A DNA stretch of 64,000 nt from contig JAJYJJ010000008.1 of assembly GCA_021789595.1 (NCBI GenBank), positions 25,403 through 89,402 on the forward strand, given 5' to 3'. The DNA is from Nitrospirota bacterium (GTDB lineage Bacteria > Nitrospirota > Thermodesulfovibrionia > UBA6902 > JAJYJJ01). Below, in pieces: positions 8,369 to 26,667 of this stretch. Positions within the stretch are counted from its first letter, which is position 1; every line of letters starts with the position of its first letter. The notes beneath the pieces were generated by a model that saw only the letters and a program-made list of their open reading frames with translations, was not told the origin of the DNA and did not search any database. The position numbers and the translations under genes are program-made.

Positions 8369-8587
8369 ATGGTAATAATCAGCTTCAGTGTTTTTGTATG
8401 GATGACAGCTATTAGGGAGATACCATTTTTTAGCCTCCCAAGGCTTATAGTAGTTTATAAAGAGGAAAGGGGGGACAAAGAGGTCTTTTTTGAGTTTGCG
8501 GACAAAGAGGAGATGAAAAACTTCTGCCATGTGCTAAATAGTGCAGGGGAGAAGAGGGAAATAACATTTATCCATAAGGAGGTTTAA
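8369..8587 (+). CDS. hypothetical protein (72 aa); start uncertain
   Basis: The ORF precedes the cytochrome gene. The ATG lies only 8 nt after the -12 GC of the candidate sigma-54 promoter, so either the start or the promoter call is off. Confidence 0.35.
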   Translation: MVIISFSVFVWMTAIREIPFFSLPRLIVVYKEERGDKEVFFEFADKEEMKNFCHVLNSAGEKREITFIHKEV

Positions 8588-8589
8588 TT

Positions 8590-8960
8590 ATGTCACAAGA
8601 ACTGAGGAGTAGATTTATATTTTTAATGATCGTCACCCTATTTCTGATCATCTTTTTTGATGCCTATTTAACAAAGGCATCAGCAGCAGGCAAGGGGAAT
8701 GCTGCTGAAGGTAAGAAGGTTTACGCTGTAAGGTGTGCCATGGTGCAAGTGGAAAGGGCGATGGCCCTGTAGGAAGATCCCTGAATCCAAAGCCCGCAAA
8801 CTTTACAGATAAAGCAATGATGGCCATGCATTCTGATGAGGAGCTCTTTAAAACGATCTCCAATGGTGTAAAAGGTACTGCAATGGTGGGATTTGCAAAT
8901 TCATTGAGCGTGGCTGACCGCTGGAACCTTGTTGCATATATAAGGTCACTCTCCAGGTAA
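8590..8960 (+). pseudogene. class I c-type cytochrome, frameshifted (or carrying a sequencing error)
   Basis: Frame A (8590..8772) gives a signal/TM segment and ...AAEGKKVYAVR. Frame B opens after TAA 8712-8714 and gives EGLRCKVCHGASGKGDGP...ADRWNLVAYIRSL. The CxxCH motif exists only in frame B. Confidence 0.7.
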
Positions 8961-9165
8961 GAGTAAGATGATAACTCTTACTGGTTGGTGCAAACCTGCA
9001 AAGGGGGTCTTTTTCCTTAAAGGCAATACCTTTTTTGTGAGACCCCCCTGAAAAGGGACTTCAATTAAGTTTAAAAGTGGTGAAGGAGGTTTGAGCAGGC
9101 TCTTAGAGCCTTAGTCTCATATTTGAATCAATAAAACAAAATTAAGCCAAAGGAGGGCAATATAA

Positions 9166-10473
9166 ATGCTGAGAAAAATATTAAAAGCCACGAGTTTAGC
9201 CATCACTGTTTCAGGGTTGTTACTTTTTTTATCCTTTACAAATGCCTATGCGGTGCCAAGTTTTGCACGGCAGACGGGAATGGCTTGTTCAGTCTGCCAT
9301 ATGGTTTTTCCTGAATTGACACCATTCGGGCGACTTTTCAAGTTGGAGGGTTATACCCTGAGTAATACCGCACAGGTCAAAGAGACAGAGGGGAATGAAA
9401 TGCATGCCCTGCTCAGTAAGATCCCGCCCCTATCGGCTATGATACAAGCATCTTATACCTCTATAAAAAAGGCACAACAGGGTATTCAAAACGGGAATAT
9501 CTCCTTCCCACAACAGCTTAGCGTGTTTTATGCCGGCAAGATTACTTCTAAGATTGGGGCCTTCGCGCAGATCACTTACGATGGTGAGAGTGGCGTTTTT
9601 TCCTTAGATATGGCAGATGTTCGTTATGCCGACCATGCAACATTAAGGGGTAAAGATCTGATTTATGGCCTTACTCTAAACAACAATCCCACGATGCAAG
9701 ATGTCTGGAATAGTACCCCCATATGGGGCTTTCCCTATGCCTCATCAAGTGTTGCTCCGACCCCAGAAGCTGAAACGCAAATCTTTGCAGGCTTTGACAA
9801 AGTCGGTGGTCTTGGTGCCTATGTCTTTTGGAACAACCTGATATATGCGGAGTTGAGTGGCTACCGCACTGCACAGAGTAGTGCCACCCCACTAAAAGGA
9901 GTTGCACCATACTGGCGCATAGCTGTAGAGCCTAACTGGGGTCACCATTCCCTGTCTGTTGGCACTTATGGTATGGTAGCCGATATTTACCCCGCCCCCC
10001 CGGGCTATGTCTCTGGGGGACCAACAGACCGTTATACGGACCTCGCTCTTGACTCGCAGTACCAGTATATCAGCGGTGATAATATTTTCTCTGCCCATAC
10101 GACATGGATTCACGAGAAGCGAAACTTAAACGCCAGTTATACCCTGGGCAATGCGGAAAACTCCTTAGGCAAGCTGCGTACCTTTAAAGTGGATGGAACC
10201 TACTACTACAAACGTCGTTATGGTGCATCAGTGGGTTATTTTTCTACAACAGGAAGTTCAGATTCATTCCTCTATGCCTCCAGTAGGACATATAGTCCGG
10301 ACAGTAATGGTTTTATTATAGAATTGAATTATTTGCCATGGGAGAATACCAAACTTTCACTACAATATACAGCCTACAGCAAGTTCGACGGGGCCAAGAC
10401 GAATTATGACGGCTCTGGCAGAAACGCTTCCGACAATAACACGCTCTATGTGCTTGCTTGGCTTGTGTTTTAA
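9166..10473 (+). CDS. cyc2: Cyc2-like fused monohaem cytochrome c / outer-membrane beta-barrel porin
   Basis: Signal peptide ending AYA, then VPSFARQTGMACSVCH...FPELTPFGRLFKLEGYT. About 380 aa of alternating aromatic/Gly-rich beta-strand-like sequence follow, ending in ...LAWLVF (C-terminal Phe). Confidence 0.62.
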   Translation: MLRKILKATSLAITVSGLLLFLSFTNAYAVPSFARQTGMACSVCHMVFPELTPFGRLFKLEGYTLSNTAQVKETEGNEMHALLSKIPPLSAMIQASYTSIKKAQQGIQNGNISFPQQLSVFYAGKITSKIGAFAQITYDGESGVFSLDMADVRYADHATLRGKDLIYGLTLNNNPTMQDVWNSTPIWGFPYASSSVAPTPEAETQIFAGFDKVGGLGAYVFWNNLIYAELSGYRTAQSSATPLKGVAPYWRIAVEPNWGHHSLSVGTYGMVADIYPAPPGYVSGGPTDRYTDLALDSQYQYISGDNIFSAHTTWIHEKRNLNASYTLGNAENSLGKLRTFKVDGTYYYKRRYGASVGYFSTTGSSDSFLYASSRTYSPDSNGFIIELNYLPWENTKLSLQYTAYSKFDGAKTNYDGSGRNASDNNTLYVLAWLVF

Positions 10474-10488
10474 ACCACCCACTCTTTA

Positions 10489-10516
10489 ATGACCCTCCCC
10501 TTAAGGGGAGGGTCAT
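10489..10516. terminator. perfect 28-nt palindrome after the cyc2-like gene (terminator or REP-like hairpin)
   Basis: ATGACCCTCCCC-TTAA-GGGGAGGGTCAT with no clear T tract. The CCCTCCC/GGGAGGG core resembles the arsA insert modules. Confidence 0.4.
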
Positions 10517-10680
10517 AGAGAATATACTCCTTTACACCTTATATCATATCCCTCACCACTGCGTCATCTTAAACAACAAGTATAGATCTTCTCTCCATAC
10601 CCTCCATTTTTGTTTCCACCGCACTGTATCTTAGGGTATACTAATACAAACGCGATAAATGATGTTTAATAAATATTGTA

Positions 10681-11103
10681 ATGAAGATATTAAAATTCCC
10701 CTTCTGGTTTACAAATGGAAGGACTCAGATCCTATGGCAGACCTCCTATCATGACAGGTATCTGCCTGAAAAGACCTACACCATACCTTTGCCTTATATA
10801 GAGATGAACCATCAGGATGCGGCTAAAATCGGGATAAAAAGCGGGGATATGGTTGAAGTCTTCAATATGGATGGTAATGTTGTTACCGTGGTGTATGTCA
10901 ATGATTCGCCTCCCCCTGGTATGGTATTTGGTCTCATGTACCATCCGGAGGGATCCCTTAACCACCTGACAACCTCGTACACTGATCCCAAGACCACTAT
11001 TCCATGGTATAAGGCTTCAAGGGTCGGTATACGGAAGCTCAGTGGCCCCATTGAGGGGGTTATAAAAAACACATCATTCCTCCCAATAAATGATTGGAGA
11101 TAA
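10681..11103 (+). pseudogene. orphan C-terminal molybdopterin-dinucleotide-binding domain fragment of a Mo-bisPGD enzyme large subunit
   Basis: The 140 aa (...TNGRTQILWQTSYHD...PYIEMNHQDAAKIGIKSGDMVEVFN..G...) match the extreme C-terminal beta-barrel domain of DMSO-reductase-family subunits. There is no upstream coding continuation. Confidence 0.6.
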
Positions 11104-11156
11104 TGCGTCTCACTGTGATGAATGAAATCACAAATATTTAGCCTGCGTTACCATGT

Positions 11157-11192
11157 GGGCGGCCAGATGGCCGCCCATTATTTTCTTTTTTT
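11157..11192 (+). terminator. rho-independent terminator
   Basis: GGGCGGCC-AGAT-GGCCGCCC followed by ATTATTTTCTTTTTTT. Confidence 0.75.
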
Positions 11193-11218
11193 CTGACCTG
11201 CTGCGCTTCAGGTTATAT

Positions 11219-12457
11219 TTAAACCCCTATTGCAGGTTCAATCCCGTATCTTCTCATCTTCCTCCAGAGTGTAGAGCGGCTCAGGCCAAGCATATTTGCA
11301 GCACAGCCTTTATTGTAGGAAGATTCCCTCAGGGCATTGAGAATCCTCTGTTTTTCATCAGCCTCGGTATGGTTTATCGCCGGATGTTCCAGCGGCCCCT
11401 CCATTTCATAGTCCAGGCAGAGGTGTTCAGGCAGAATGGTATCATCATCAGCAGCACAGACAAGGGCGCTTTCTAAAACCGAGAAGAGTTCTCTGATATT
11501 CCCATACCATTGATGGGATAGGAGTAATTTCATGGCAGATGGGCTGATATTTTTCTTTCCTTGAAGGAAATTGGTAACAAGGCAGGGGATGTCCTCCTTT
11601 CTTTCCCTTAACGGTGGGACAAAGAGCCTCACCACTGATATCCTGAAGAAAAGGTCGAGCCTGAATTCCCCTGTCTTTGTCATCTCCCAGAGCGGCTTGT
11701 TGGATGATGAGATTATCCTCACATGGCTTGTCCTCTCCTTTGCAGCGCCGAGGGGTCTGTATCTTCTGGTATCTAAAAAGGTGAGGAGTTTTGATTGGCA
11801 GTTGAGGGGCAGGTTCGAGATCTCATCAAGAAAAAGGGTGCCCCTGTCAGCAAGGGCGATGTATCCCATTTTCTCGGTGCTGGCGCCTGTGAATGCGCCC
11901 TTTTCATAACCGAATAGTTCTGATTCAAAGAGTGTTTCAGGGATGGCTGAACAATTTATGTGGATGAAGGTTCCTCCACTGTGGGGGCTATGTTGATGGA
12001 TGAATCGCGCAAGTTCAGTCTTACCTGTCCCTGTTTCTCCGAGGATGGTTATCGGGGCGTCCTTATTTGCAGCTAAGACGGCCCTCTGCAAGGTCATTGA
12101 CATTGTCTTGTTCTTTGTTGCCCAGGAAAGTTCTCTTGAGGTGTCATAGCGGTCTATGCCCTTAATGAAGTTCCATATACCACCCACTACCTTACCATTC
12201 TCATCCTTGACAGGATAGTAGATAAATGTGCCTGTTATCCTGCCGCCTGGTGTCTTCAGGAACCCCGTGGTTATCGCTATATCCTGAGGAGGATAATCAC
12301 GTGGGCAGAAACCTTTGGATGTGCAGACACTGTTCAGCAAGGAGTGGCCCGTATCTTTTAATCCACAGATATCCTTTGCCTTTTCACTTGTTGAAAGGAT
12401 GTTCCCTTTTCCATCGGTCAAGAAAAAAATGGCCGACCCTAATGAAGATGTTTCCAT
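11219..12457 (-). CDS. sigma-54-dependent transcriptional activator (PAS-like sensor, AAA+ domain, Fis-type HTH)
   Basis: Walker A GETGTGKT, the GAFTGA loop (YEKGAFTGA), and C-terminal HTH (AANMLGLSRSTLWRKMRRYGI). No receiver domain. Confidence 0.9.
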   Translation of the reverse strand: METSSLGSAIFFLTDGKGNILSTSEKAKDICGLKDTGHSLLNSVCTSKGFCPRDYPPQDIAITTGFLKTPGGRITGTFIYYPVKDENGKVVGGIWNFIKGIDRYDTSRELSWATKNKTMSMTLQRAVLAANKDAPITILGETGTGKTELARFIHQHSPHSGGTFIHINCSAIPETLFESELFGYEKGAFTGASTEKMGYIALADRGTLFLDEISNLPLNCQSKLLTFLDTRRYRPLGAAKERTSHVRIISSSNKPLWEMTKTGEFRLDLFFRISVVRLFVPPLRERKEDIPCLVTNFLQGKKNISPSAMKLLLSHQWYGNIRELFSVLESALVCAADDDTILPEHLCLDYEMEGPLEHPAINHTEADEKQRILNALRESSYNKGCAANMLGLSRSTLWRKMRRYGIEPAIGV

Positions 12458-12478
12458 GGTACCTCCTGTTCAGCAGTT

Positions 12479-12516
12479 TGTTTCATTATGTTTCATTATA
12501 TGTTTCACACGAAACA
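12479..12516. promoter_or_regulatory. three TGTTTCA repeats, the last forming TGTTTC-ACAC-GAAACA (candidate UAS)
   Basis: TGTTTCA occurs at 12479, 12489 and 12501, with GAAACA at 12511-12516. It lies between the activator gene start and the sigma-54 promoter at 12567. Confidence 0.4.
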
Positions 12517-12566
12517 AAGTCAAGAGAAAATGGATTAAATATCCTTAGTTATCAAGCCAGAGAAAT

Positions 12567-12582
12567 TGGCATGAGTATTGCT
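12567..12582 (+). promoter_or_regulatory. sigma-54 (-24/-12) promoter TGGCATGAGTATTGCT
   Basis: Near-consensus TGGCAC-N5-TTGCW with exact spacing. It is divergent from the activator gene and upstream of the cytochrome/Mo-family operon. Confidence 0.6.
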
Positions 12583-12626
12583 TGATAGTTATGTCTTAAA
12601 AAGTCTTCTTTGCAGATATTTATGCA

Positions 12627-12983
12627 GTGGATTCTGCTTACATCGGCAGGCAGGAATCAGATTTTATGGATATAACATCAGGCGTAAAAATATATGGACT
12701 CTGTCTGGAGAGATTAAAGCACCAGATAAGTATTGCCAGATCAAGGATTGAAAAGGGACATGAGGAGGATACGAGGGAAATTGTCCTTGAATGCTATAAC
12801 ACGGGCAATGTAGATGACATCATAGATATACTGGAACTTTATGACATAGGTGATGACAAGAGAATAGATACACTAAAAGACAAACTTGATGAGCTGGCAT
12901 ACACTGCCTCTCTGCTTGTGAGGGAAAAGGTGAAGTTTGGCTTCTCTGAAGAAGGCGAGTTGTGTCTTTATCTGGTGAGATGA
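12627..12983 (+). CDS. hypothetical acidic cytoplasmic protein (118 aa)
   Basis: Its stop TGA (12981-12983) overlaps the ATG (12980) of the cytochrome gene in an ATGA coupling, which supports a real gene. The start codon is uncertain. Confidence 0.5.
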   Translation: MDSAYIGRQESDFMDITSGVKIYGLCLERLKHQISIARSRIEKGHEEDTREIVLECYNTGNVDDIIDILELYDIGDDKRIDTLKDKLDELAYTASLLVREKVKFGFSEEGELCLYLVR

Positions 12984-13456
12984 AGAGATTTGTGGTCATA
13001 GTATCTATAGTTATCTTTGTCTCTGGCTGCGGAGAGACGGTAAGGCAGCCCATAAAATTCAACCACAAGAAGCATGTGGATATGGGAATTGGGTGCGATA
13101 CCTGCCACATCTATGTGAAAGAGCAGCCCTTTGCAGGGCTTCCGAAGATAGAGATATGTCTCGGCTGTCATGAGGCACCGATTACAAAGAGTGCAGAAGA
13201 GGAGAAGATAAGAGATTTCAAGAAGAGGGACATCGAGTTGAGATGGACTAAACTCACCAATCTTCCAGACTATGTCTATTTCTCACATAGAAGGCATGTG
13301 GGCATTGCAAAACTGGACTGCAAGGGCTGTCATGGGGATATCGCTGAAATGCCAGTGCCTCCTGAAAGGGCATTGGTGAGCCTTAAGATGGGGGATTGTA
13401 TTGATTGCCATAGGAAGAAAAAGGCAAAGACCGATTGTATATACTGCCACAGGTGA
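12980..13456 (+). CDS. pentahaem c-type cytochrome lipoprotein (ActA/Qrc-type electron-transfer subunit)
   Basis: Five CxxCH motifs (CDTCH, CLGCH, CKGCH, CIDCH, CIYCH). Lipobox VSGC follows MKRFVVIVSIVIF. The start was moved to ATG 12980 (the track starts at GTG 12962). Confidence 0.8.
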   Translation: MKRFVVIVSIVIFVSGCGETVRQPIKFNHKKHVDMGIGCDTCHIYVKEQPFAGLPKIEICLGCHEAPITKSAEEEKIRDFKKRDIELRWTKLTNLPDYVYFSHRRHVGIAKLDCKGCHGDIAEMPVPPERALVSLKMGDCIDCHRKKKAKTDCIYCHR

Positions 13457-13465
13457 GGGGATTTA

Positions 13466-15646
13466 ATGGCTCTAACGAGAAGGGACTTTATTAAGGTTGT
13501 TGGGATAGGGGCATTCGCAGCCACTACAGGCTGCACAAAGCTCTCTGAGTTTATGGATGAAGGAGCGGTTTCTGTACCGCCAAATGGCGTCGAGAAATGG
13601 ATACCCTCTGTATGTGGACAGTGCTCTGGAGGCTGCGGAATAATTGCGAGGGTTATTGATGGGAGGGTGGTAAAGATAGAGGGCAATCCCCTTTCCCCGA
13701 TAAATAGAGGGACCCTGTGTGCGAGAGGACAGGCAGGTCTTCAGGTGTTGTATGACCCGGACAGGATAAGGGCTCCTCTGAGGAGGGTCGGGGACAGGGG
13801 CTCTGACAGGTGGAGGGAGATAGGCTGGGATGAGGCTATAGGGGAGGTTGCGGAGAGGCTTAACGGGATAAGGAGAAAGGGCATCCCCCATAAGGTGGCC
13901 ATGATCTCCGGTTCTGAGAGGGGATCGATGGATCTCCTGTTGTGCCGGTTCATGGAAGCCCTTGGTTCTCCCAATTATTTTCTCATGCCAGATGACAACG
14001 ATGATATACAGATAGATGCGATCTCTGTTATGCAGGGCATAAAAGGCAGGCCCCTCTTCGATATATCCCGTGCAAGATACATCCTGTCCTTTGGTTCTCC
14101 CCTGATCGAGACCTTTTCATCACCCGTCCAGACCATGAGGATGTACGGGGAGTTCAGGGGCGGGAATGGAAAGATGAGGGGCAGGCTGGTCCATATCTCA
14201 CCCCGTCTTTCCGTAACAGGCATAAAGGCGGACAGGTGGGTACCCTTAAGACCGGGCACAGAGGGCGTCTTTGCCCTGGGGATCGCCCATGTAATCATAA
14301 AGGAGTCGCTCTATGATAGAGACTTCATTTCCAGCCATACATCAGGATTTGATGGATTCAGGGAAATCCTCCTCAAGGAGTATACACCATCTTATGTCTC
14401 GAAGATAACATCCCTTGCCGAAGACAGGACAATAGAGATAGCAAGAGAATTTGCCTCATTCAGGCCCTCCCTGGCGATAGCAAACAGGTGTAGGTTATAT
14501 GACCAGATGGCTATTCATTCATTAAACGCCCTTATAGGCAGCATAGGTAAAAGGGGAGGGATAATCTTCCAGAGCGCTCCGGGGCCTTATGCCCTTCCGC
14601 TATCGGAAAGGGCAATAGCGATGACCCCCATTTCCGGTTCACCCTATACGCTTTCTGAGGCGATAAGAAATGGGTCTCCCTACAGCCTGGAAGCCCTTTT
14701 GATTTATAACTGTAATCCCCTCTTCTCCCTGCCCGATATGCATGAGGCATCCAGGGGAATTCCCTTTATTGTGAGTTTCTCTCCCTTCATGAATGAGACA
14801 GCAAGGACGGCAGACCTCATCCTCCCTAACAACACCTATCTCGAAAACTGGGGAGACGTCCTGAGCCATACTGCCGAAGGGACTGCCATCGGCATAAGAC
14901 AGCCTGTCCTGAAGCCGATATACAGGACCATGCAGACCGGTGATGTGATATTAAGGATTGCGAGGAATATGGGCGGGGACATAGAAAAAAGCATGCCCTG
15001 GGGAAGTTTTAAGGATGCCCTTTTTTATTCTTTAAGGCAGCTTCGTAAAAGAAAGGGAGAGGTATTCGGCATTTCAAAGGGATTAAGGGGGGAAGAGGAA
15101 TTTTTGGAGGCCATGCTGGCAGGCGGCGGTTATCGGGAGCCATCGGATTACCAGAGGCCTGGGGAATTTGATTTCCATCAAGTTACCTCACCACAGGCCG
15201 TGAGAGATTATAAGAAGGGCCTATCCGGGGGAGATGAAAAAGACTATCCCCTTTATCTGAATATACACAGGCTTTCGACACATTCGGGCATCACCGATTA
15301 TAACCAGCCCTATCTGAAGGAATCCCTCACACCGGAGATCCCGGAGGCCTGGGATTCATGGGTGGAGATAAATCCGGAGACAGGAAAGAGACGGGGCATT
15401 AGCACAGGGGATATGGTTGTTGTTGAATCTCAGGCGGGGAGGATAAGGCTCAGGGCGAGGTTATATCAGGGGATAATGCCTGATGTTGTGAGCATCCCCT
15501 TTGGACTTGGAGAGGCAGGCCTGGGCAGATGGAATAAAAACATAGGGGTCAATCCGGAGAAGATACTGGTGAAGGATATAGATCTGCCTTCAGGCAATCT
15601 AATCAGAAATTCCACAAGGGTGAGAATATACAGGGCAGATGGCTAA
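13466..15646 (+). CDS. molybdopterin-oxidoreductase-family large subunit with Tat signal (Psr/Qrc/ActB1-like)
   Basis: Twin-arginine signal TRRDFIKVVGIGAFAA, FS0 motif CGQCSGGCG...x27..C, and a C-terminal MopB_CT-like domain (GISTGDMVVVES..G). Confidence 0.85.
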   Translation: MALTRRDFIKVVGIGAFAATTGCTKLSEFMDEGAVSVPPNGVEKWIPSVCGQCSGGCGIIARVIDGRVVKIEGNPLSPINRGTLCARGQAGLQVLYDPDRIRAPLRRVGDRGSDRWREIGWDEAIGEVAERLNGIRRKGIPHKVAMISGSERGSMDLLLCRFMEALGSPNYFLMPDDNDDIQIDAISVMQGIKGRPLFDISRARYILSFGSPLIETFSSPVQTMRMYGEFRGGNGKMRGRLVHISPRLSVTGIKADRWVPLRPGTEGVFALGIAHVIIKESLYDRDFISSHTSGFDGFREILLKEYTPSYVSKITSLAEDRTIEIAREFASFRPSLAIANRCRLYDQMAIHSLNALIGSIGKRGGIIFQSAPGPYALPLSERAIAMTPISGSPYTLSEAIRNGSPYSLEALLIYNCNPLFSLPDMHEASRGIPFIVSFSPFMNETARTADLILPNNTYLENWGDVLSHTAEGTAIGIRQPVLKPIYRTMQTGDVILRIARNMGGDIEKSMPWGSFKDALFYSLRQLRKRKGEVFGISKGLRGEEEFLEAMLAGGGYREPSDYQRPGEFDFHQVTSPQAVRDYKKGLSGGDEKDYPLYLNIHRLSTHSGITDYNQPYLKESLTPEIPEAWDSWVEINPETGKRRGISTGDMVVVESQAGRIRLRARLYQGIMPDVVSIPFGLGEAGLGRWNKNIGVNPEKILVKDIDLPSGNLIRNSTRVRIYRADG

Positions 15647-16322
15647 ATGGGTAATGGTCATAGACCTCGATAAATGCACTGCCTGCCAGGCCTGTGTTGT
15701 AGCCTGCCAGGTGGAAAACAACATTCCCATTGCAGGTCCTGATGAGACAGAAAGGCAGAGGATTATTCGGTGGATGGAGATAATACCTTTTATCTATGGA
15801 GAATATCCTGATGTGAGGATGAGACTGCTGCCGAGACCATGTATGCAATGTGACAACCCGCCATGCACAAAGGTTTGTCCTGTGAGGGCGACCATGCTGG
15901 GACCTGAGGGGATAGTGGCACAGATATACCCGAGGTGCATAGGCTGTAGATACTGCACCTCTGCATGCCCCTACACCGTGAAATACTTTAACTGGCACAC
16001 ACCATCATGGCCCGAGGAGATGAGAAATTCCCTCAACCCCGACGTCTCTGTGAGGCCGGCAGGGGTTGTTGAGAAATGCACCTTCTGCATCCATAGGCTC
16101 CAGAAGGCGAGGGAAAAGGCTGCTGCTGAAGGAAGGCAACTCAGGGAGGGTGATTACATCCCTGCCTGCGTCCAGACATGCCCGAGCTGTGCCATGTATT
16201 TCGGCGATAGCGAGAACCCGAAGAGCATTGTCTCTGACCTCATAAAGAGTCCGAGGGCATTCAGGCTCCTTGAGGAAATAGGCACAGAGCCAAAGGTTTA
16301 TTATCTTTCAGAGGGACAATAG
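15639..16322 (+). CDS. 4x[4Fe-4S] ferredoxin-type subunit (PsrB/QrcC/ActB2-like)
   Basis: Four Cys clusters (CTACQACVVAC, CMQCDNPPCTKVC, CIGCRYCTSAC, CTFCIHR...CVQTC). It overlaps the upstream gene by 8 nt. Confidence 0.9.
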   Translation: MAKWVMVIDLDKCTACQACVVACQVENNIPIAGPDETERQRIIRWMEIIPFIYGEYPDVRMRLLPRPCMQCDNPPCTKVCPVRATMLGPEGIVAQIYPRCIGCRYCTSACPYTVKYFNWHTPSWPEEMRNSLNPDVSVRPAGVVEKCTFCIHRLQKAREKAAAEGRQLREGDYIPACVQTCPSCAMYFGDSENPKSIVSDLIKSPRAFRLLEEIGTEPKVYYLSEGQ

Positions 16323-16323
16323 G

Positions 16324-18069
16324 ATGGAGAGGGAAGATATACTGTTCAAGCCCATTGATAGGCCAGGCAGGAAATTTTACATAGTGGCAGGCATCATGAG
16401 TATGGTTGTGATCTGGGCATTTTATGCCTACATAACAGAGCTCAGGAACGGGCTCGGTGTCACGGGTCTAAACAGGCCTGTGTTCTGGGGGTTCTATATA
16501 ACAAATTTTGTATTCTTTATAGGCATAAGCCATGCAGGAACCCTCATCTCCGCAGTTCTGAGGATAACAAACGCAGAATGGAGGAAGTCCATAACAAGGT
16601 CTGCTGAAGTCATAACAGTCCTGGTTCTGGGCATCGGGGTCATGAACATATTGATGGACCTCGGCAGGCCTGACAGGGTTCTGAATATCATAAAGTATGG
16701 AAGATTCCAGTCTCCTCTTGTCTGGGACCTCATCAGCATTACAACCTATTTAACTGCAAGCATAATATACCTCTACCTCCCCCTTATCCCTGATATTGCT
16801 TTGTTGAGGGATAGGGTAAAAGATGAACCGAGGAAGTGGTTTTATAATATTCTTTCTATTGGCTGGAAAGGGACAGAGGAACAACAAAGGATACTCAACG
16901 GGGCCATCGCTATTATGGCCATTCTTGTTATTCCTATAGCTGTCTCTGTCCATACAGTGGTTTCCTATGTTTTTGCGATGACCATACAACCCATGTGGCA
17001 CAGTGCAATATTCGGGCCTTACTTTGTTGTTGGGGCGATATTCTCTGGCATTGCTGCCATAATAATAATCATGGCAATAATCAGAAAGGTTTACCATCTT
17101 GAAGATTATTTGAGGCCAGTCCATTTTAAGAATTTGGGTATATTGTTATTTGTTATGGCCTGTCTATGGCTATATTTCACACTCAATGAGTATCTGACCA
17201 CCTTCTATGCTGCAGAGCCTGTTCAGATGAAGGTGTTTTACTCAAAGTTTACTGGAAGATATGCACACTTGTTCTGGCTCATGGTTATAACCTGTTTTGT
17301 TATCCCTGCCATACTCCTGGTGAATAAAAGGACGAGAACTATCTCAGGGATGGTTGCGGCATCTATTTCGATAACAATAGGTATGTGGCTTGAGAGATTT
17401 ATAATCATAGTACCCAGCCTTGCAAATCCGAGGCTTCCCTATGAAAGGGGTATATATTTTCCCACATGGGTTGAATGGTCATTGATGGCAGGGTGCTTTG
17501 CCCTATTTGCACTGATGTATATGGTATTCACAAAACTATTCCCCATCGTCTCTGTATGGGAGGTGAGAGAGGCGAGGGAGACGGGATTGAAGGAGATCAG
17601 GGAAAGGGTGAAGGAGTACCTGCCGGGTATGGAGGTACTTGCGAAGAATATTATGAGCAAGGAGGTTATTGCTGTCACACCTGAAACTACTGTGGAGGAG
17701 ATAGGCAGGCTACTCGCCTCCCATCGCATAAGCGGGGTGCCCGTGATAGATGCAGACAAAAGGGTGATAGGGGTGGTCTCGGAGTCGGATGTCATATTCA
17801 GGGAGATAAGGCATGAGTTCACTCTTGTGGAAAGACTGGGTAATATTATCCTGCCAGAACTGCGGAGGGAGGGTGAGAGGTCTGGTAATACCGCAGGTGA
17901 GATAATGACCTCTCCTGCTATTACTGCAGAGGAAGAGACTTCCCTTACTGAACTCATGGAGATAATCAGGGAGAAGAAGATAAAGAGGATAGTCATAGTG
18001 GATAAGGTCGGACGGCTTGCAGGGATAGTCTCGAGGATTGATATAGTAAAGGCGATTGAAAGGATATAA
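16324..18069 (+). CDS. NrfD/PsrC-family integral membrane subunit fused to a C-terminal CBS-pair domain
   Basis: The first ~420 aa are polytopic NrfD-like (GLGVTGLNRPVFWGFYITNFVFFIGISHAGTLIS). From about residue 444 (nt 17653) there are two CBS motifs (SKEVIAVTPETTVEEI...GVPVID and EIMTSPAITA...KRIVIVD..GRLAGIVSRIDIVKA). Confidence 0.85.
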   Translation: MEREDILFKPIDRPGRKFYIVAGIMSMVVIWAFYAYITELRNGLGVTGLNRPVFWGFYITNFVFFIGISHAGTLISAVLRITNAEWRKSITRSAEVITVLVLGIGVMNILMDLGRPDRVLNIIKYGRFQSPLVWDLISITTYLTASIIYLYLPLIPDIALLRDRVKDEPRKWFYNILSIGWKGTEEQQRILNGAIAIMAILVIPIAVSVHTVVSYVFAMTIQPMWHSAIFGPYFVVGAIFSGIAAIIIIMAIIRKVYHLEDYLRPVHFKNLGILLFVMACLWLYFTLNEYLTTFYAAEPVQMKVFYSKFTGRYAHLFWLMVITCFVIPAILLVNKRTRTISGMVAASISITIGMWLERFIIIVPSLANPRLPYERGIYFPTWVEWSLMAGCFALFALMYMVFTKLFPIVSVWEVREARETGLKEIRERVKEYLPGMEVLAKNIMSKEVIAVTPETTVEEIGRLLASHRISGVPVIDADKRVIGVVSESDVIFREIRHEFTLVERLGNIILPELRREGERSGNTAGEIMTSPAITAEEETSLTELMEIIREKKIKRIVIVDKVGRLAGIVSRIDIVKAIERI

Positions 18070-18346
18070 CATAGTGAGTGAAAAATTGGCGGAAGACAGA
18101 ATTGTAAAGTATATACAGATTTCGGGAATCGCACTTTTTTATGCCTTTGTTGCAGGGGTTGCATTATTCCTCATCAATGGCATAAAGAATGGGTGGGTAT
18201 ACCATGTTTCTTCTGCTCCCTATGAACTTTCCTTCCCCTTTGCAATAATAATATCCGCTATTATTCTAATGGTATTTTCGGTATTGACCCTTGTGGTATC
18301 TATGGTCTTCTGGGGTTTTTTAAGGGATGATATAGTGAAAGGATGA
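18056..18346 (+). CDS. small two-TM membrane protein (96 aa)
   Basis: Overlaps the end of the NrfD-CBS gene by 14 nt and has two hydrophobic spans. No family recognised. Confidence 0.45.
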   Translation: MKGYNIVSEKLAEDRIVKYIQISGIALFYAFVAGVALFLINGIKNGWVYHVSSAPYELSFPFAIIISAIILMVFSVLTLVVSMVFWGFLRDDIVKG

Positions 18347-18414
18347 GTAAATCAAAATTATTCTCTCTTAAAGACTCTTTGACATATAGAATCTGACTCG
18401 TCTTTCTTAAAGCG

Positions 18415-18725
18415 ATGCAGAAAGATTATCTGCATCAAACATCCATACCCTGTGGTCAGAAGGGGAAGGCTGAAACACCCGTCCTAACAAAAACTGTCAT
18501 AACCGTCGGGTGGACTCTCGGGGTAGCAGGGGCGACACGCAGTGGAAGCCATTTGAGGCGGATTTTCAGGAGAACTCCTATGGATTCCGCCCCAAAAGGG
18601 ACGCCCATCAAGCGATGAATGATGTGAGCTATCACATTCGGTATGGAAAGTATCAGGTGATAGATGCCGACATCTCGAAGTATTTTGACAACATACCTCA
18701 TGACAAACTACTTGCGCTGAGATAA
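18415..18725 (+). mobile_element. degenerate fragment of a group II intron reverse transcriptase
   Basis: Frame-split: ...SIPCGQKGKAETP... then WKPFEADFQENSYGFRPKRDAHQAMNDV...VIDADISKYFDNIPHDKLL (RT blocks 2-4). Truncated at both ends. Confidence 0.65.
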
Positions 18726-18803
18726 CAACGCAGTGGAGACTATAAAAAGGGTGTTGCCACTTCCAAGACCCCCTGTTAGGGCAGAGGTGATAATACCGAT
18801 AGT

Positions 18804-18998
18804 TTATAAACTCAATTGATTAATGTAAATTGTTATGGTTGGAAAAATAGAGAGAATAAATTTCTGACCGGTGAATGCAAAATAAAAAATCCTGTGTATA
18901 TTGGCCTTATCCTTTATCCTTATTTCAAAAGGCTTACGATGTCCTGTGATTGGCTTAACATAAGGCTCTTTCACATTAAGACCGTATTGCTCCAGCAA
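18804..18998 (-). pseudogene. truncated RelE/ParE-superfamily (Gp49-like) toxin remnant
   Basis: ...KPITGHRKPFEIRIKDKANIHRIFYFAFTGQKFILS matches the toxin core but then runs into unrelated sequence. No antitoxin partner is present. Confidence 0.45.
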
Positions 18999-19021
18999 GT
19001 CGGCACCGATAGTTCTATTCC

Positions 19022-19381
19022 CTAAGACTGAACAGAGGACAAGGTTATATCCTTACTCACGATGGTAATCCTCTGAAGCCAGAAGATTCCCTTTAAAGGG
19101 GACAATACCCCTTTAATTGTACTTTCCACAAGTAATCGCGTAAAGTCCTTTAGCAATGGGATCTCTCCTTTTTCTGTATAAATACGGAGTTCCGCCTCGT
19201 CTATATAAACTGTTATGTCCCTTGAATCATAGCCCAGCGACAACACAATACCTCTCAAAACATTGCCCATATAGTTCTGGATAAATTCATTAAGCGGCAC
19301 GATAGAATCATTAACGAGCAGACTTGTCTTCAACTGTGTAATATCCTCCCTCTGCACAGGGTTTACACAACACCTTTCCAT
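19022..19381 (-). CDS. hypothetical protein; last gene of the Mo-enzyme operon, start uncertain
   Basis: The tracked ORF overlaps the FmdE-like gene by 71 nt, so the real start is probably internal. No family recognised. Confidence 0.4.
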   Translation of the reverse strand: MERCCVNPVQREDITQLKTSLLVNDSIVPLNEFIQNYMGNVLRGIVLSLGYDSRDITVYIDEAELRIYTEKGEIPLLKDFTRLLVESTIKGVLSPLKGIFWLQRITIVSKDITLSSVQS

Positions 19382-19922
19382 CTCTATGCACCTCCCTCAT
19401 GTCCTGAACATACTCGCCACACACATCGCACTTAACCCTCATCAGCGGCCTACCCGGCATATCCTCAGGCCTTAATTGAACATTCACATCCATCATTTCA
19501 AAGAGTTCTTCATCGGTCATTACCCTGTATGCCTCAAGCTGTGCCTTATATTTGTCCTTCTCAGGAAAATATTCCCTTGCCTTTTCCCTTGCCTCTTCCT
19601 TTGCAATGACCCTAACGGCCTTACCTGTTTTTAGATTTACAAATGTGGCTGCCATTTTGCCGTAGTCCATAAACTTCATTGTCCTGCGTCCAAGGCTGCA
19701 GCCAGTAACAGATTGGACTGCATCCGTTGCACATCTGTCCATCTCAACAAAAACGATCAGATTTTTTTTGTCCTTGCCTTTAGGGTCTTCGATACTAATC
19801 TTTCTCAGTCCAAGCATGGACATCTTTACTCCAAGCATCTGACCCGGGCAGAGATGTCCGTGAATTTTTACTGATTCATCTAAAAGCGATTCGAAATCCA
19901 TTGCATTTATACTATAAACCAT
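19311..19922 (-). CDS. FmdE/FwdE-domain protein with C-terminal zinc ribbon
   Basis: HGHLCPGQMLG and DRCATDAVQSVTGCSLG motifs, plus a C-terminal CDVCGE...CKPC. Confidence 0.8.
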   Translation of the reverse strand: MVYSINAMDFESLLDESVKIHGHLCPGQMLGVKMSMLGLRKISIEDPKGKDKKNLIVFVEMDRCATDAVQSVTGCSLGRRTMKFMDYGKMAATFVNLKTGKAVRVIAKEEAREKAREYFPEKDKYKAQLEAYRVMTDEELFEMMDVNVQLRPEDMPGRPLMRVKCDVCGEYVQDMREVHRDGKVLCKPCAEGGYYTVEDKSAR

Positions 19923-19924
19923 GC

Positions 19925-20566
19925 TTATGTAAATTTATTGTTAACTAAATTCCTTGTCACCTGTGCCAGAGCCTTATAAAATTGCGAGTCCGTTGCTTTT
20001 TCCATATCCATTGTGAACTGTGGAACCCACTTTATAAGATGCTCTTCCAGAAATCTCTTAGCAATATCCATATAATAAAGCCTTTTTTCGGGTTCATTAT
20101 CCATTTTTTGAAACAAGACTGCCATAAAATTCAGTTCTGCTCCAATATGGTCAGACATTATATCAGGATTATTAATTGTTAACCCAATTTTAGTATAAAT
20201 ATTTTTGACTTCATCATATGCATCCTGCATCATCAGTCTTTTAGGTGATGTATATACAGATTCCCACGGCGGACAGGGAAGCTTATATGGTCCGATAAAA
20301 AGCCTTGTGTACTCCCATAACAAATCTTCAAGCTCCTGCCCTGAATTAAGGTCTATCACATCAATAGCATCCTTTAAGCCTGACAAGAGATCAGACACAT
20401 CCAGAGGAAGCAATGTCTTCCAGTTTTCAATGGCCTCTCTTGTAGGTTTGCATAAATACATACTGCTTAAAAGACTGCAAGCTTTTTGCCATTCACTACC
20501 AATAATCATTGTGGCATCCCGCATCGTATTTATACCCCTCATGATCTGTCGTTTATGCAAGGGCAC
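19925..20566 (-). CDS. TorD/DmsD-family redox-enzyme maturation chaperone
   Basis: 213 aa. YTRLFIGPYKLPCPPWESVY and HIGAELNFMA are typical of TorD-like chaperones, and the gene follows the FeS subunit gene. Confidence 0.8.
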   Translation of the reverse strand: MPLHKRQIMRGINTMRDATMIIGSEWQKACSLLSSMYLCKPTREAIENWKTLLPLDVSDLLSGLKDAIDVIDLNSGQELEDLLWEYTRLFIGPYKLPCPPWESVYTSPKRLMMQDAYDEVKNIYTKIGLTINNPDIMSDHIGAELNFMAVLFQKMDNEPEKRLYYMDIAKRFLEEHLIKWVPQFTMDMEKATDSQFYKALAQVTRNLVNNKFT

Positions 20567-20620
20567 AACATATGTTGTACCCTTGCAATCTTACGCAGTG
20601 AAATTTTTATCTCTGTATCC

Positions 20621-21211
20621 TTATTTCTTTATGTTCCTTGCCTCCACAAACCTTATTGAGGGTCTTGTTAATTTTGGGTCTGCAAGGTCTGGCAGCTTTT
20701 CAACAATCTTACCCTTAAATACAGGGTCTGCAAAGGCATTGCCTGCTTCAACATCAGGGAGTCTTCCATTGGAAAGGGCATAGCCCATACAGGTCCTCAC
20801 ACATGCAGGAGGAAGCCCTGCCTTTAGCCTGTGGATGCAGAAGTTACACTTATCTACTTTCTTCTTCTTCTCGTCAAACTGAGGAGCGCCATAAGGACAG
20901 GCGGCCATACAGCGTTTGCAGCCAATGCATTTCTTCTGATCATGCAGTACAACACCGAACTCCGGCTCCTTAGTGTATGCTCCTACAGGACATGCCTTCA
21001 TGCATGCAGGCTCCTCGCAGTGATTGCAGGAGATGGAGATATATCTCACCACAGGATTGGGGTATTTGCCTTCCTCTTTAATAATCACCCTTCTCCGTCT
21101 AATTCCAACAGGCAGGTCAAATTCCTGTTTGCACCCGGCCTCGCATGCCCTGCACGCAATACAGTTGTCCTCATCATAAAGCCACGCCATCTGTTTTGGA
21201 TTCTTTGCCAT
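20621..21211 (-). CDS. 4x[4Fe-4S] electron-transfer subunit of the Mo enzyme
   Basis: CIACRACEAGC, CNHCEEPACMKAC, CIGCKRCMAAC and CNFCIHR...CVRTC. Confidence 0.9.
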   Translation of the reverse strand: MAKNPKQMAWLYDEDNCIACRACEAGCKQEFDLPVGIRRRRVIIKEEGKYPNPVVRYISISCNHCEEPACMKACPVGAYTKEPEFGVVLHDQKKCIGCKRCMAACPYGAPQFDEKKKKVDKCNFCIHRLKAGLPPACVRTCMGYALSNGRLPDVEAGNAFADPVFKGKIVEKLPDLADPKLTRPSIRFVEARNIKK

Positions 21212-21223
21212 TTATATCACCTC

Positions 21224-23575
21224 CTACGCCTTAATTATTCTAATGCCGATTTCTTTATGGACAGCCATGCCCGATGTCTTTTCAGCTACGCCAGCGAGGA
21301 ATTGACCATCTGCTGTGCCTGCAGGCGACCATCTGTTGATCTTGTTCAGAGAGCCTCTTGCTATCTTCCCAAATGCCCAGTGGCCATAGCCATGCTGAAG
21401 TGAAACAACTTCCGGATGTATCCTTTCAGTTGTCTGCACTGTTGCCTTTGCCCTTGCATAAGGAGACTCAAGCCAGATGGCGTCTCCATCCTTAAGCCCG
21501 AGATTTGCCGCAGTGGCAGAATTTATAATGAGAGGATTATCAGACTTCATCTCCATAAGCCAGTTGTTGTTAAATGTCCTTGAATGGGTATGTTCGGACT
21601 GCTTGAAATTGACAAGATAAAGGGGAAACTCAGCAGTTGGTTTATATATTGGCTCAACATAATCTGGCAGAGGATTTAAACCCTTTTTTGCCATCTGTTC
21701 TGAGTAGAACTCTATCTTCTTTGAAGGTGTTGCAAAACCATTCTTTTTATATTTTTCGTAATGGGTTTCACCTCCGATAAACACGGCACCTGGAAGCGCC
21801 AGCATCTCATCAAGTGTCTTTCCAATGGGGCCGTTTTTGAGCTGGTCTGAGATGTATTCGGGATAGGTGTCAGGCAGGGTCTTGCCATCCTTATCCTTTA
21901 GCCCCATCTTCCTAGCGAGGGCAAGGATGAACTCCTGCTCCGTCATCCCATTTATCACTGACTTGACGGCAGGCTGCCTTATGGCTGTGGCAGGGAAGGT
22001 GACCCAGTTCACATTCACTTCCCAGCGCTCGAGATAATGGCTGCCTGGTATCACTATATCTGCAAGCTCGGCAGTCTCGCTCATCATCGTGTCAAAAACG
22101 ACCACATATTCAAGTTTCTTTAGTGCTTCAATATTCTTCCTTGTGTTGGGGATTGCCATAACAAAGTTGTGGAACATAAGCACCGCCGCACGAAGCTGAT
22201 AGGGCTTACCTGAGAGCATTGCATCCCTTGTCTCCACCAATATCCCTGATGGATGGGCAAAAGGATATTTTGTCCCCAGTCCGTCAATCCTTGGCGACTT
22301 GGGTTTATCAACATTGAATGCCCTGCGCTTGCCGCCCATGGCCTGTCTGATCATCATCGTGCCGGGTTTATCATATTGTCCGAGCAGGGCAGGAAGCATC
22401 GCTATTGCCCTTCCGCCGTCTGTTGCATTGGTATGATGGCCTGGACCGCTCCATACATCAACAATAGCGGGCTTGGTTGCGGCAAGCTCTTTTGCTATCC
22501 TTCTTGTGGTTTCTGCCGGCACAGAGGTAATCCTTTCAGCCCATTCAGGGGTTTTATCCCTGACAAGCTCCGCATATTTATCGAACCCTACTGTGTAATT
22601 CTTTATGAATTCCTCATCATACCACCTGTTCCTCACAATCTCATGCCCCAGAGCGAGCGCAAATGCGCCGTCTGTCCCGGGCCTGATAGGTATCCATTCA
22701 TCTGCCTTTGCTGTGGTCTGACTATAGGAGGGGTCGACAACTACCATTTTTGCTCCTTTTGCCCTGCCCCAGTTATATATACCTGGCAGATGAGACCACT
22801 TTGTGGCTCCAAGGAAGTTCCATCCGAAAACAAGGGCATACTTTGTATTTGCAAAGTCAGGTAATGGTCTTTCATCACCCATCACCAGCTTGAATGATGC
22901 CTTTCTTGCCACATCACAGAGGTTTGAATGCTGCGAGTAATTTGGAGAACCGTAGAGAAGGTTGAAGTCTCCCTGCATGTCTGTAAATGATGAGTCTTCA
23001 GTAGTCCAGAAAAGGGCCTCTGGGCCGTATTTCTTCCGTATTTCCAGTAGATTTTTTGCCACATCATCAAGGGCCTCTTTCCATGAGATGGCCTTCCATT
23101 TTCCCGATCCTCTCGGCCCTACCCTCTTCATCGGTTTTTTCAGCCTGTCTGGATCATAGAGCGCCCTCGTTCCTGAATTGCCTTTTGGACACATCCTTCC
23201 GCCAAGGGCCTTTTTCTCAGCATAATCTGTTGAGATATTCGCTACGCCTATAGGGTTATATTCATTCGGTTCGATCTTTACAACCCTTCCATCAACAACA
23301 TGTACCTTTATACCTGATGTGCCTCCGCACATCTGGCATGTGGTATAAATCCATTTGCCTTTCCCGGCAAATAGCGATCCTTCCAGCCTTTCTTGTGCAC
23401 TGGCTTCCCTGAAAAGGCCGAGTTTGTCATCCCATATAAGGCCGCTGGCAATGGCTGCTCCGGCAAGGGCCGATGTCCATTTAAGAAAGGACCTTCTTGT
23501 GAATTCCTTCCCTGTAACTTTTTCAAAAACACTTTTTTCTTCTTCCGTTATAATCCTTTTTTCGCTCATCAACAT
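21224..23575 (-). CDS. periplasmic Mo/W-bisPGD oxidoreductase catalytic subunit (Psr/Phs/Arr/Ttr superfamily, substrate unknown)
   Basis: 783 aa with Tat signal FTRRSFLKWTSALAGAAIA. The N-terminal cluster motif reads CQMCGGTSG...C, candidate Mo-ligand segment is QHSNLCDVARK, and a C-terminal MopB_CT domain is present (GLKDGDAIWLESPYARA). Confidence 0.9.
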   Translation of the reverse strand: MLMSEKRIITEEEKSVFEKVTGKEFTRRSFLKWTSALAGAAIASGLIWDDKLGLFREASAQERLEGSLFAGKGKWIYTTCQMCGGTSGIKVHVVDGRVVKIEPNEYNPIGVANISTDYAEKKALGGRMCPKGNSGTRALYDPDRLKKPMKRVGPRGSGKWKAISWKEALDDVAKNLLEIRKKYGPEALFWTTEDSSFTDMQGDFNLLYGSPNYSQHSNLCDVARKASFKLVMGDERPLPDFANTKYALVFGWNFLGATKWSHLPGIYNWGRAKGAKMVVVDPSYSQTTAKADEWIPIRPGTDGAFALALGHEIVRNRWYDEEFIKNYTVGFDKYAELVRDKTPEWAERITSVPAETTRRIAKELAATKPAIVDVWSGPGHHTNATDGGRAIAMLPALLGQYDKPGTMMIRQAMGGKRRAFNVDKPKSPRIDGLGTKYPFAHPSGILVETRDAMLSGKPYQLRAAVLMFHNFVMAIPNTRKNIEALKKLEYVVVFDTMMSETAELADIVIPGSHYLERWEVNVNWVTFPATAIRQPAVKSVINGMTEQEFILALARKMGLKDKDGKTLPDTYPEYISDQLKNGPIGKTLDEMLALPGAVFIGGETHYEKYKKNGFATPSKKIEFYSEQMAKKGLNPLPDYVEPIYKPTAEFPLYLVNFKQSEHTHSRTFNNNWLMEMKSDNPLIINSATAANLGLKDGDAIWLESPYARAKATVQTTERIHPEVVSLQHGYGHWAFGKIARGSLNKINRWSPAGTADGQFLAGVAEKTSGMAVHKEIGIRIIKA

Positions 23576-26336: not shown

Positions 26337-26667
26337 CCTGTAAGGTAATAGGTTTCTTTTTCAATGGCTCTATCCCCAATGCCCTGCATAGCTCTTCATA
26401 CGATGGATATTCCCCTGTCTTCATCACCTCTCCGCTGACCATTGTAATGGGCAGTACCTTTTTACCGTTTTCATGAAGCAGTTCGGCGATCGTTTTGTTT
26501 GCCATAAATGCCCTTGGCTGCTGGGCAAGGTTATATCTCTCTACTTCCACCCCCTGCTTTTTTAATGCCAGCACCGCATCGTTCATCTTTACCAGAACAG
26601 GGTCAATGCTTGGCCCGCAAAGCCCCGATGAACAGCACATCGCCGGGTCGTAGATTTCTATTTTCAT
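26326..26667 (-). CDS. arsD: arsenic metallochaperone ArsD
   Basis: MKIEIYDPAMCCSSGLCGP shows the Cys12-Cys13-Cys18 pattern. It overlaps the arsA start by 11 nt. Confidence 0.9.
   Translation of the reverse strand: MKIEIYDPAMCCSSGLCGPSIDPVLVKMNDAVLALKKQGVEVERYNLAQQPRAFMANKTIAELLHENGKKVLPITMVSGEVMKTGEYPSYEELCRALGIEPLKKKPITLQVGG

Follow-up and report, generated by a model that had tools for sequence, protein, structure and literature searches.

A probable alternative complex III-type operon with a CBS-bearing ActC-like subunit in a Nitrospirota bacterium from mine drainage

The operon described here lies in a stretch of 64,000 nucleotides of DNA from a Nitrospirota bacterium (UBA6902; JAJYJJ01), recovered from a mine-drainage metagenome (GCA_021789595.1, contig JAJYJJ010000008.1, positions 25,403-89,402 of the forward strand). 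This whole stretch is referred to as the window, and coordinates are counted within it unless another locus is named. The operon comprises six open reading frames (ORFs; 12666-18346), which run in one direction with tight spacing, and it probably encodes an alternative complex III (ACIII)-type membrane complex that links the quinone pool to periplasmic cytochromes; judged from sequence comparison, a probability of about 0.6 is given to this reading. Few building blocks of anaerobic respiration are as widespread as NrfD-type quinone modules, in which the coupling of electron and proton transfer is still debated. A first-pass annotation of the same DNA had described a Qrc/ACIII-like quinone-interacting module behind a sigma-54 promoter, and all the features that it listed were found where it had placed them or close by. 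The region 8500-21500 is matched with zero differences by an independent assembly of the reads of the same study.

The complex would work like ACIII, as judged by the quinol pocket and channels of an ActC-like subunit, by an iron-sulfur (FeS) wire and by the haems of an ActA-like cytochrome. Subunit D (16324-18069, + strand) contains a Pfam NrfD domain at residues 46-366. A hydropathy scan found 10 hydrophobic segments in its ActC-like membrane part (16324-17643), which is followed by two cystathionine beta-synthase (CBS) domains, in agreement with the NrfD subunit of about ten transmembrane helices and a CBS pair that had been proposed. The best PDB matches of D are the ActC chains 6btm_C (E 5.5e-75) and 6f0k_C (E 1.7e-74), with 38% identity. 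The residues proposed to form the P-side quinol pocket and the proton pathways in ActC of Rhodothermus marinus (PMC5928083) were mapped onto D through a HMMER alignment. Of the eight named pocket residues, six are the same in D (Trp82, Ile86, Phe89, Leu166, Asp169 and Val250), and the two changed ones are His139, replaced by an Asp that is invariant in the family, and Pro136, replaced by Ile. Ser245 of ActC, a residue of inter-subunit coupling in the same study, is identical as well, and so are all 14 residues of the proposed cytoplasmic half-channel and four of the six residues of the proposed periplasmic half-channel. The 10-helix ActC subunit with its proposed pocket and half-channels, one of the marks of an ACIII, is thus present in D.

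Subunit C (15639-16322, + strand; 227 amino acids) is an ActB2/QrcC-like ferredoxin that shares 43% identity with the C-terminal domain of R. marinus ActB (E 4e-60). Its 16 cysteines form four motifs, suited to four [4Fe-4S] clusters, and are all invariant in 81 sequences, which bears out the four-cluster ferredoxin subunit of the earlier annotation. The motif CIGCRYC of C stands where ActB has CxGT[RK]YC (CIGTRYC), the source of the [3Fe-4S] cluster of ActB. Subunit A (12980-13456, + strand; 158 amino acids) is an ActA-like pentahaem cytochrome c with five CxxCH motifs, and is predicted to be a lipoprotein, since its signal peptide ends in VSG directly before the cysteine of the lipobox VSGC; a pentahaem cytochrome with a lipobox had been expected at this place. 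Its reading frame starts with the ATG at 12980 rather than the GTG at 12962, and the public gene call likewise gives 158 amino acids. The best PDB matches of A are the ActA chains 8k9e_A (E 1.8e-25) and 6f0k_A (E 5e-23), so that a pentahaem ActA is also present, anchored by a lipobox rather than by a helix.

ACIII (ActABCDEF), as known from R. marinus, Flavobacterium johnsoniae, Roseiflexus and Chloroflexus (PDB 6F0K, 6BTM, 6LOD and 8K9E), is the nearest solved system. It shares with the window complex the pentahaem cytochrome, a molybdopterin-like B1 part that is exported by the twin-arginine translocation (Tat) pathway and has no molybdenum (Mo) ligand, the ActB2-type FeS part and the ActC-type membrane subunit. 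The two differ in that B1 and B2 are separate genes in the window, whereas ActB is a cofactor-less B1 fused to a [3Fe-4S]-bearing B2; that subunit B keeps the four FS0 cysteines, which ActB chains lack; that C has the cysteines for four [4Fe-4S] clusters instead of one [3Fe-4S] and three [4Fe-4S] clusters; that A is anchored by its lipobox and ActA by an N-terminal helix; and that the ActC homologue carries a fused CBS pair. Counterparts of ActD, of the monohaem ActE and of ActF are not found, there being neither a second NrfD-like ORF nor a cytochrome gene after D in the window; in most of the wider family a tetrahaem cytochrome takes the place of ActE. By sequence, therefore, the complex does not belong to canonical ACIII.

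ACIII-like clusters with some of these features have been reported. In iron oxidisers, clusters of the type actAB1B2CDEF have a split ActB, with the motif CX2CX3CX27C in B1 (Kato 2015, PMC4643136), and are listed among candidate iron-oxidation genes (PMC4643136), and actAB1B2CDE clusters of Nitrospirales lack ActF and ActG (PMC12342949). The window operon resembles these clusters in the split ActB, the FS0 motif, the absence of ActF (as in the Nitrospirales type) and a possible link to Cyc2-type iron oxidation; compared by their description only, the published clusters include a cytochrome ActE and ActD, and no CBS domain is mentioned. Split-ActB clusters with FS0 and clusters without ActF are thus already known, and no description of the CBS fusion was found. 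No orthologue of a characterised complex was found to carry the CBS fusion, and the finding that would have overturned the first-pass annotation, orthology of all subunits to a characterised complex of the same architecture, did not occur.

QrcABCD, the menaquinone reductase of Desulfobacterota, likewise has four subunits, which belong to the same four protein families, and the QrcA, QrcB and QrcC models are the best NCBIfam matches of A, B and C. All scores stay below the curated equivalog cut-offs (107 bits against 180 for A, 328 against 440 for B, 311 against 400 for C), and D reaches only 63 bits against the cut-off of 570 of QrcD; its top model is DsrP, and it falls in the ActC/DsrP group, from which the QrcD group differs. 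It was reported that QrcA has six haems, that QrcB has no cofactor and that QrcC has one [3Fe-4S] cluster (PMC8076601, PMC13059093), whereas the window proteins have five haem motifs, FS0 cysteines in B and, in C, the motifs for four [4Fe-4S] clusters instead of one [3Fe-4S] and three [4Fe-4S]. An orthologous QrcABCD was rejected on these scores, none of which reaches its cut-off, and on the subfamily of D, which is not that of QrcD. Of the earlier description as a Qrc/ACIII-like set, one part stood: the top PDB matches (ActA, the C-terminal domain of ActB, and ActC) and the top NCBIfam models for A to C place the complex closer to Qrc and ACIII than to PsrABC. The other part has to be amended, because the membrane subunit is ActC-like and not QrcD-like.

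The complex might nevertheless reduce menaquinone, as a counterpart of QrcABCD or as an ACIII running in reverse in the manner proposed for iron oxidisers, with electrons from periplasmic cytochromes fed by a hydrogenase, a formate dehydrogenase or Cyc2-like Fe(II) oxidation. Besides the leading Qrc models, this view is favoured by the organism being a Thermodesulfovibrionales-type anaerobe, by genes for a Cyc2-like cytochrome-porin and a class-I cytochrome c just upstream of the operon, by the Fe(II)-oxidising Cyc2 documented in Thermodesulfovibrionia (PMC13647500), by the listing of split-ActB clusters with FS0 among candidate iron-oxidation genes (PMC4643136), and by the absence of the high-potential tetrahaem cytochrome from the clade of the window. 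On the other side stand the sub-threshold Qrc scores, above all the 63 bits of D, the presence of ActC channel residues instead of a QrcD-type sequence in D, and the differences in haem number, FS0 cysteines and FeS clusters given above; moreover, the upstream cytochrome c gene is frameshifted and the connection to Cyc2 is one of adjacency only. This view is given a rather low probability.

In the preferred ACIII-type reading, a complex of four to five subunits would exchange electrons between the menaquinone pool and periplasmic c-type cytochromes. Menaquinol would be oxidised in D, its electrons would travel along the FeS wire of C, reach the haems of A and continue to soluble or outer-membrane cytochromes, and protons would move through D. 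One such partner might be the Cyc2-like cytochrome-porin whose gene lies 2 kb upstream, and in this organism the module may join an outer-membrane cytochrome of the Cyc2 type to the quinone pool. For subunit B, the main part would be that of scaffold and Tat carrier rather than catalyst. The complex can probably run both ways, with quinol oxidation, the direction of ACIII, put slightly ahead of quinone reduction.

The part of subunit B (13466-15646, + strand; 726 amino acids) was considered separately, because it is here that a true Mo enzyme would have to be sought. This ActB1/QrcB-like protein carries three Pfam molybdopterin-family domains and the Tat motif TRRDFIK, and agrees with the Tat-exported large subunit of the molybdopterin family that had been annotated. 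ActB and B align in having both the RR motif and a cysteine after the signal, and Cys23 of B may be a lipidation site. The FS0 motif, the retention of which had also been noticed in the first reading, is C50-x2-C53-x3-C57-x27-C85 (CX2CX3CX27C), and its four cysteines are invariant in 120 relatives of B. The N-terminal FS0 motif and the Tat signal of enzymes with a molybdenum or tungsten bis(pyranopterin guanine dinucleotide) cofactor (Mo/W-bisPGD) are thus found in B. No Cys, Sec, Ser or Asp ligand was recognised at the conserved position, although by sequence one of the Asp residues there might still serve as a ligand.

At the position of the Mo ligand, none of the 120 relatives has Cys, Sec or Ser. 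The ligand cysteines of ArrA, of PsrA, of a 783-amino-acid Psr/Phs-like paralogue in the same window and of an 869-amino-acid enzyme of locus L003 align together, and B has MP-DDNDD there. (Names of the form L003 denote homologous loci or contigs; L003 and L004 are two metagenomic contigs with an orthologous operon.) The consensus of the B family at this position is GSPNYIDNQFQWEG, which contains NQFQWEG, and the loop is different in each of the four closest relatives, the window protein included (FLMPDDNDD, ILSMDDNED, ILASDRTKL and ISASD-EV). The 783-amino-acid paralogue served as a control: its ligand cysteine is present in the alignment, and it scores 442 bits with the PhsA model and 191 with QrcB, compared with 323 and 328 bits for B. 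The QrcB model matched 25 of 25 family members scanned (best E 1.8e-110), the bit score being given for the window protein only. Compared with their L003 orthologues, B is 54%, C 83% and D 85% identical, which makes B the fastest-evolving subunit; this would be unexpected if B carried the active site. The motifs of the pterin region in B (NP..., ETA... and LP...LE.WGD) are no evidence for Mo, because ActB, whose B1 domain is without cofactor, keeps them too. No Moco riboswitch was found in an Rfam scan, and a chaperone gene is not among the genes of the operon.

PsrABC, PhsABC and ArrAB resemble the window complex in the fold family, Tat signal and FS0 motif of B, the four-cluster ferredoxin C and the NrfD family of D, and they differ from it in that the window complex has no Mo-ligand cysteine, an additional pentahaem subunit and a 10-helix membrane subunit of the ActC type. 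A PsrABC was rejected for the lack of the ligand cysteine and for partner subunits that are ActA- and ActC-like. A broader form of the idea holds that B is a Mo/W-bisPGD enzyme of the Psr/Phs/Ttr/Arr kind acting on a sulfur, arsenic or selenium compound, with a ligand other than cysteine (an Asp of the DDNDD loop) or with no protein ligand, as in arsenite oxidase. It would fit the invariant FS0 motif and the Lys or Arg that follows its fourth cysteine in the displayed sequences, as in real Mo enzymes, and also the near equality of the PhsA and QrcB scores and the origin from mine drainage with arsenic genes nearby. Nevertheless it is held to be quite improbable, because the ligand cysteine is absent from 120 relatives and the subunit is the least conserved one, and the ActA-like and ActC-like partners are foreign to Psr-type enzymes. 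The functions left open by the first-pass annotation are narrowed in this way: quinone reductase and quinol oxidase remain, and a true Mo enzyme is unlikely, its ligand cysteine being missing throughout the family and present in the paralogue.

Several observations weigh against the ACIII-type reading, some of them in favour of a Mo enzyme. Among PDB chains, B scores 217 bits with ArrA and 197 with PsrA, and the N-terminal domain of ActB is matched only weakly (46-73 bits). An invariant FS0 is hard to square with a pure scaffold, and some redox chemistry may take place at B. A gene for a TorD/NarJ-type chaperone directly follows D in the acidobacterial loci L008, L016 and L032, that is, in 3 of 84 loci. 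The clade of the window lacks the tetrahaem cytochrome, and the operon encodes no soluble cytochrome partner. The structure prediction for D, made with a 29-sequence alignment, is a low-confidence model (predicted local distance difference test score, pLDDT, of 62) in which the CBS part is disordered. No matching contig was found in three metatranscriptome runs of the same study. In addition, the direction of electron flow and the ligand of the CBS pair are inferred from sequence, and the family as a whole is widespread and noted in genomes but biochemically uncharacterised. With respect to the origin of the cofactor-less subunits of ACIII and Qrc from molybdoenzymes, an FS0 motif kept in a subunit without Mo ligand is of relevance.

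The CBS pair of D (17644-18069; Bateman module) begins at residue 441 and is matched twice by the Pfam CBS model (E 1.4e-28). Both halves have the motif G-h-h-S-x-x-D (GVVSESD and GIVSRID), which is conserved in all fusion sequences, so that tandem CBS domains, the motif G-h-h-S/T-x-x-D and a cytoplasmic location, the features of a Bateman module, occur together. The closest solved relatives are CBSX1 and CBSX2. C-terminal cytoplasmic CBS pairs with a conserved ribose-binding motif are also known from MgtE, ClC, CNNM/CorC, OpuA and CBSX proteins; unlike those of the CBS-regulated MgtE, ClC, CNNM/CorC and OpuA, the pair in the window sits on a respiratory subunit of the NrfD family. It starts about 25 residues after Glu413, at the C-terminal end of helix 10, and Glu413 corresponds to Glu450 of ActC, which the authors of the R. 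marinus study listed in the cytoplasmic half-channel.

Among ActC-like homologues, a CBS tail was found in the protein clusters P0001-P0004, one of which is labelled Thermodesulfovibrionales by its source, and in L003 and L004, and in none of 80 species-representative loci; the ActC-like fusion is thus seen only in sequences of the Thermodesulfovibrionales type. With helix 10 plus the CBS pair as query, about 25 further partial proteins were found, 42-68% identical, in which a CBS pair of the same kind is attached to a different NrfD subfamily. The one full-length example, at 7325-8963 of L085, is NrfD by Pfam, and its N-terminal half is about 27% identical to D; Crp-type regulators flank this gene, which has no FeS subunit gene beside it and is interrupted by a run of N. 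Because the second CBS-bearing subfamily differs from that of D, the NrfD-CBS fusion is concluded from these sequences to have arisen or spread at least twice in the lineage. No description of an NrfD-CBS or ActC-CBS fusion was found in the literature.

The CBS pair would bind an adenosine ligand and adjust proton uptake or turnover to the energy state of the cell. We tentatively propose that it could be an energy-charge (adenosine-nucleotide) sensor gating the cytoplasmic proton half-channel of D and, as part of the same proposal, that the whole family could be a living intermediate between Psr and ACIII/Qrc; the odds of this combined proposal are low. The occurrence of the same CBS pair on a second NrfD subfamily of the same lineage suggests selection for such control, and the intermediate position is suggested by the combination, within the family, of a retained FS0, four [4Fe-4S] clusters and a lost Mo ligand. 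If true, an NrfD-family respiratory module would here for the first time be under direct nucleotide control. The fusion also offers a natural regulatory switch with which the importance of the proposed cytoplasmic proton channel can be probed.

The operon is preceded by a sigma-54 (-24/-12) promoter, TGGCATGAGTATTGCT (12567-12582, + strand), with one mismatch to the consensus. Sigma-54-like matches are not rarer in the window than in shuffled sequence, and a lone match is within chance. A copy of this 16-mer that differs at a single base stands before the orthologous operon of L003 and of L004, where other intergenic DNA has diverged, and this conservation supports the promoter that had been annotated; sigma-54 promoters also lie ahead of homologues of the first ORF in three unrelated contigs (L086, L087 and L088). 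A second conserved element upstream, GTTTCATTATATGTTTCACACGAAACAAAGTCAAG (12490-12524, + strand; 35 bases, with the inverted repeat TGTTTC-N4-GAAACA), is near-identical in L003 and L004 while the remaining intergenic region has diverged, and is a candidate activator-binding site. It is overlapped on the minus strand (12523-12495) by a sigma-70-like sequence, TTGACT-17-TATAAT, that would serve the activator gene. This gene (11219-12457, - strand) is divergent from the operon and encodes a sigma-54 enhancer-binding activator of 412 amino acids (Pfam Sigma54_activat, E 5.5e-59, and HTH_8) with a short N-terminal sensory region, an AAA+ sigma-54 interaction domain and a Fis-type helix-turn-helix. 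Its orthologue in L003 has the same position and is 86% identical. Transcription of the operon presumably starts at the sigma-54 promoter and is driven by this activator.

The first gene, ORF1 (likely extent 12666-12983, + strand), is preceded by an AGGA resembling a ribosome-binding site and encodes an acidic cytoplasmic protein of 105 amino acids. Its stop codon and the start of the cytochrome gene overlap as ATGA, a sign of translational coupling, and the protein has no meaningful match in Pfam, NCBIfam or PDB (the last searched also by profile), in keeping with the coupled unknown ORF of the first-pass annotation. The family is small, with 35 representative homologues of 52-142 amino acids (most of 92-142) among 1.84 billion proteins; the L003 orthologue is 77% identical. 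A structure predicted from the single sequence reached a pLDDT of only 47. At 6469-8360 of L087, the ORF1 homologue is a single gene beside a homologue of the activator, with no ACIII-like genes nearby, and in both L087 and L088 ORF1 homologues stand next to divergent activator homologues without respiratory genes. A role of ORF1 as a dedicated chaperone or subunit of the complex was rejected on account of the L087 arrangement. Because the homologues pair elsewhere without ACIII-like genes, ORF1 and the activator are read from their gene neighbourhoods as an independent sigma-54 pair, behind which the respiratory genes were attached in the clade of the window, and ORF1-type small proteins seem to be the usual target of this type of activator. 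The attachment to this pair and the CBS fusion are, on the same comparisons, lineage-specific additions to the complex.

The distribution of the family was examined in a scan with one genome per species, in which at least 531 relatives were confirmed and 80 loci were kept for gene order. These loci span more than 12 phyla, including Thermodesulfobacteriota, Acidobacteriota, Planctomycetota, Rokubacteria and NC10, and further Gemmatimonadota, Ignavibacteria, Zixibacteria, Myxococcota and others, and the gene order A-B-C-D is kept in nearly all of them. Compared with the window proteins, A is 37-58% identical, B 28-44%, C 58-72% and D 59-69%. The conservation of D is unusual for proteins of different phyla, and hundreds of proteins of some 440-490 amino acids share 65-77% identity with its membrane part. 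A class-I tetrahaem cytochrome c of about 400 amino acids follows D in 70 of 84 loci, preceded in several of them by a small protein with two helices, and no second NrfD-like gene (ActF) was found after D in the family loci. In the acidobacterial locus L032 (about 11350-17376), A-B-C-D are followed by tetrahaem and decahaem cytochromes and an MtrB/PioB porin (E 2e-124), and the same extension occurs in L016 and L069. This acidobacterial continuation points to a link with extracellular electron transfer.

The last gene of the window operon (18056-18346, + strand) encodes the corresponding small membrane protein of about 85-96 amino acids, the start codon being uncertain. Its two hydrophobic helices agree with the two-helix protein that had been named as the end of the operon. 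Homologues with 30-59% identity follow D in L001, L003, L009, L011, L025, L051 and L064, and at 1039-2736 of L070 (Hydrogenedentota) the small protein is fused to the C-terminus of the ActC-like subunit. D and the small protein are therefore argued to touch, and the latter is a probable accessory subunit contacting D. Searches of PDB with the single sequence and with a profile gave no match to ActD.

Downstream, no terminator-like site was found on the + strand past the last gene. Short ORFs with a fragment of a reverse transcriptase (RVT_1, E 1e-6) follow the operon directly (18415-18725, + strand), and no group II intron RNA was found by the Rfam scan. L003 and L004 have at this position a gene for an 89-amino-acid monohaem protein, which is absent from the window.

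Upstream of the operon, beyond the activator gene, the 435-amino-acid protein encoded at 9166-10473 (+ strand) has a signal peptide, a single N-terminal CxxCH (MACSVCH) and a C-terminal Phe, and it has no match in Pfam or NCBIfam; from these features it looks like a Cyc2-type fused cytochrome-porin. Since an Fe(II)-oxidising Cyc2 was reported in Thermodesulfovibrionia (PMC13647500), a link between the outer membrane and the quinone pool is plausible on the basis of adjacency. The class-I monohaem cytochrome c gene at 8590-8960 (+ strand) is frameshifted inside its haem motif (...YAVRCAM / MCHGASGKGDG...), and is probably a pseudogene rather than an assembly error, because the independent assembly has the identical sequence. 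An isolated ORF of 140 amino acids at 10681-11103 (+ strand) matches only the last ~115 residues of AioA, the large subunit of arsenite oxidase (TIGR02693, E 4e-39), and is, by this match, a gene remnant; the equivalent upstream position of L003 holds a full Mo enzyme and FeS pair.

Further downstream, a Psr/Phs-like molybdoenzyme operon (19311-23575, - strand) encodes the 783-amino-acid enzyme with its ligand cysteine (21224-23575), together with a DmsB-like FeS subunit, a TorD-like chaperone and an FmdE-like protein. In the FS0 motif of this enzyme the third cysteine is changed to Ser (CQMCGGTSG). It is followed by an arsenic-resistance set (24264-29042, - strand) with an ArsA ATPase, a universal stress protein, an Acr3 arsenite efflux transporter and an ArsR-type regulator, which fits the mine-drainage source. 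The catalytic subunit of an anaerobic carbon-monoxide dehydrogenase (TIGR01702, 740 bits) is encoded at 41237-43144 (- strand), consistent with an anaerobic lifestyle.

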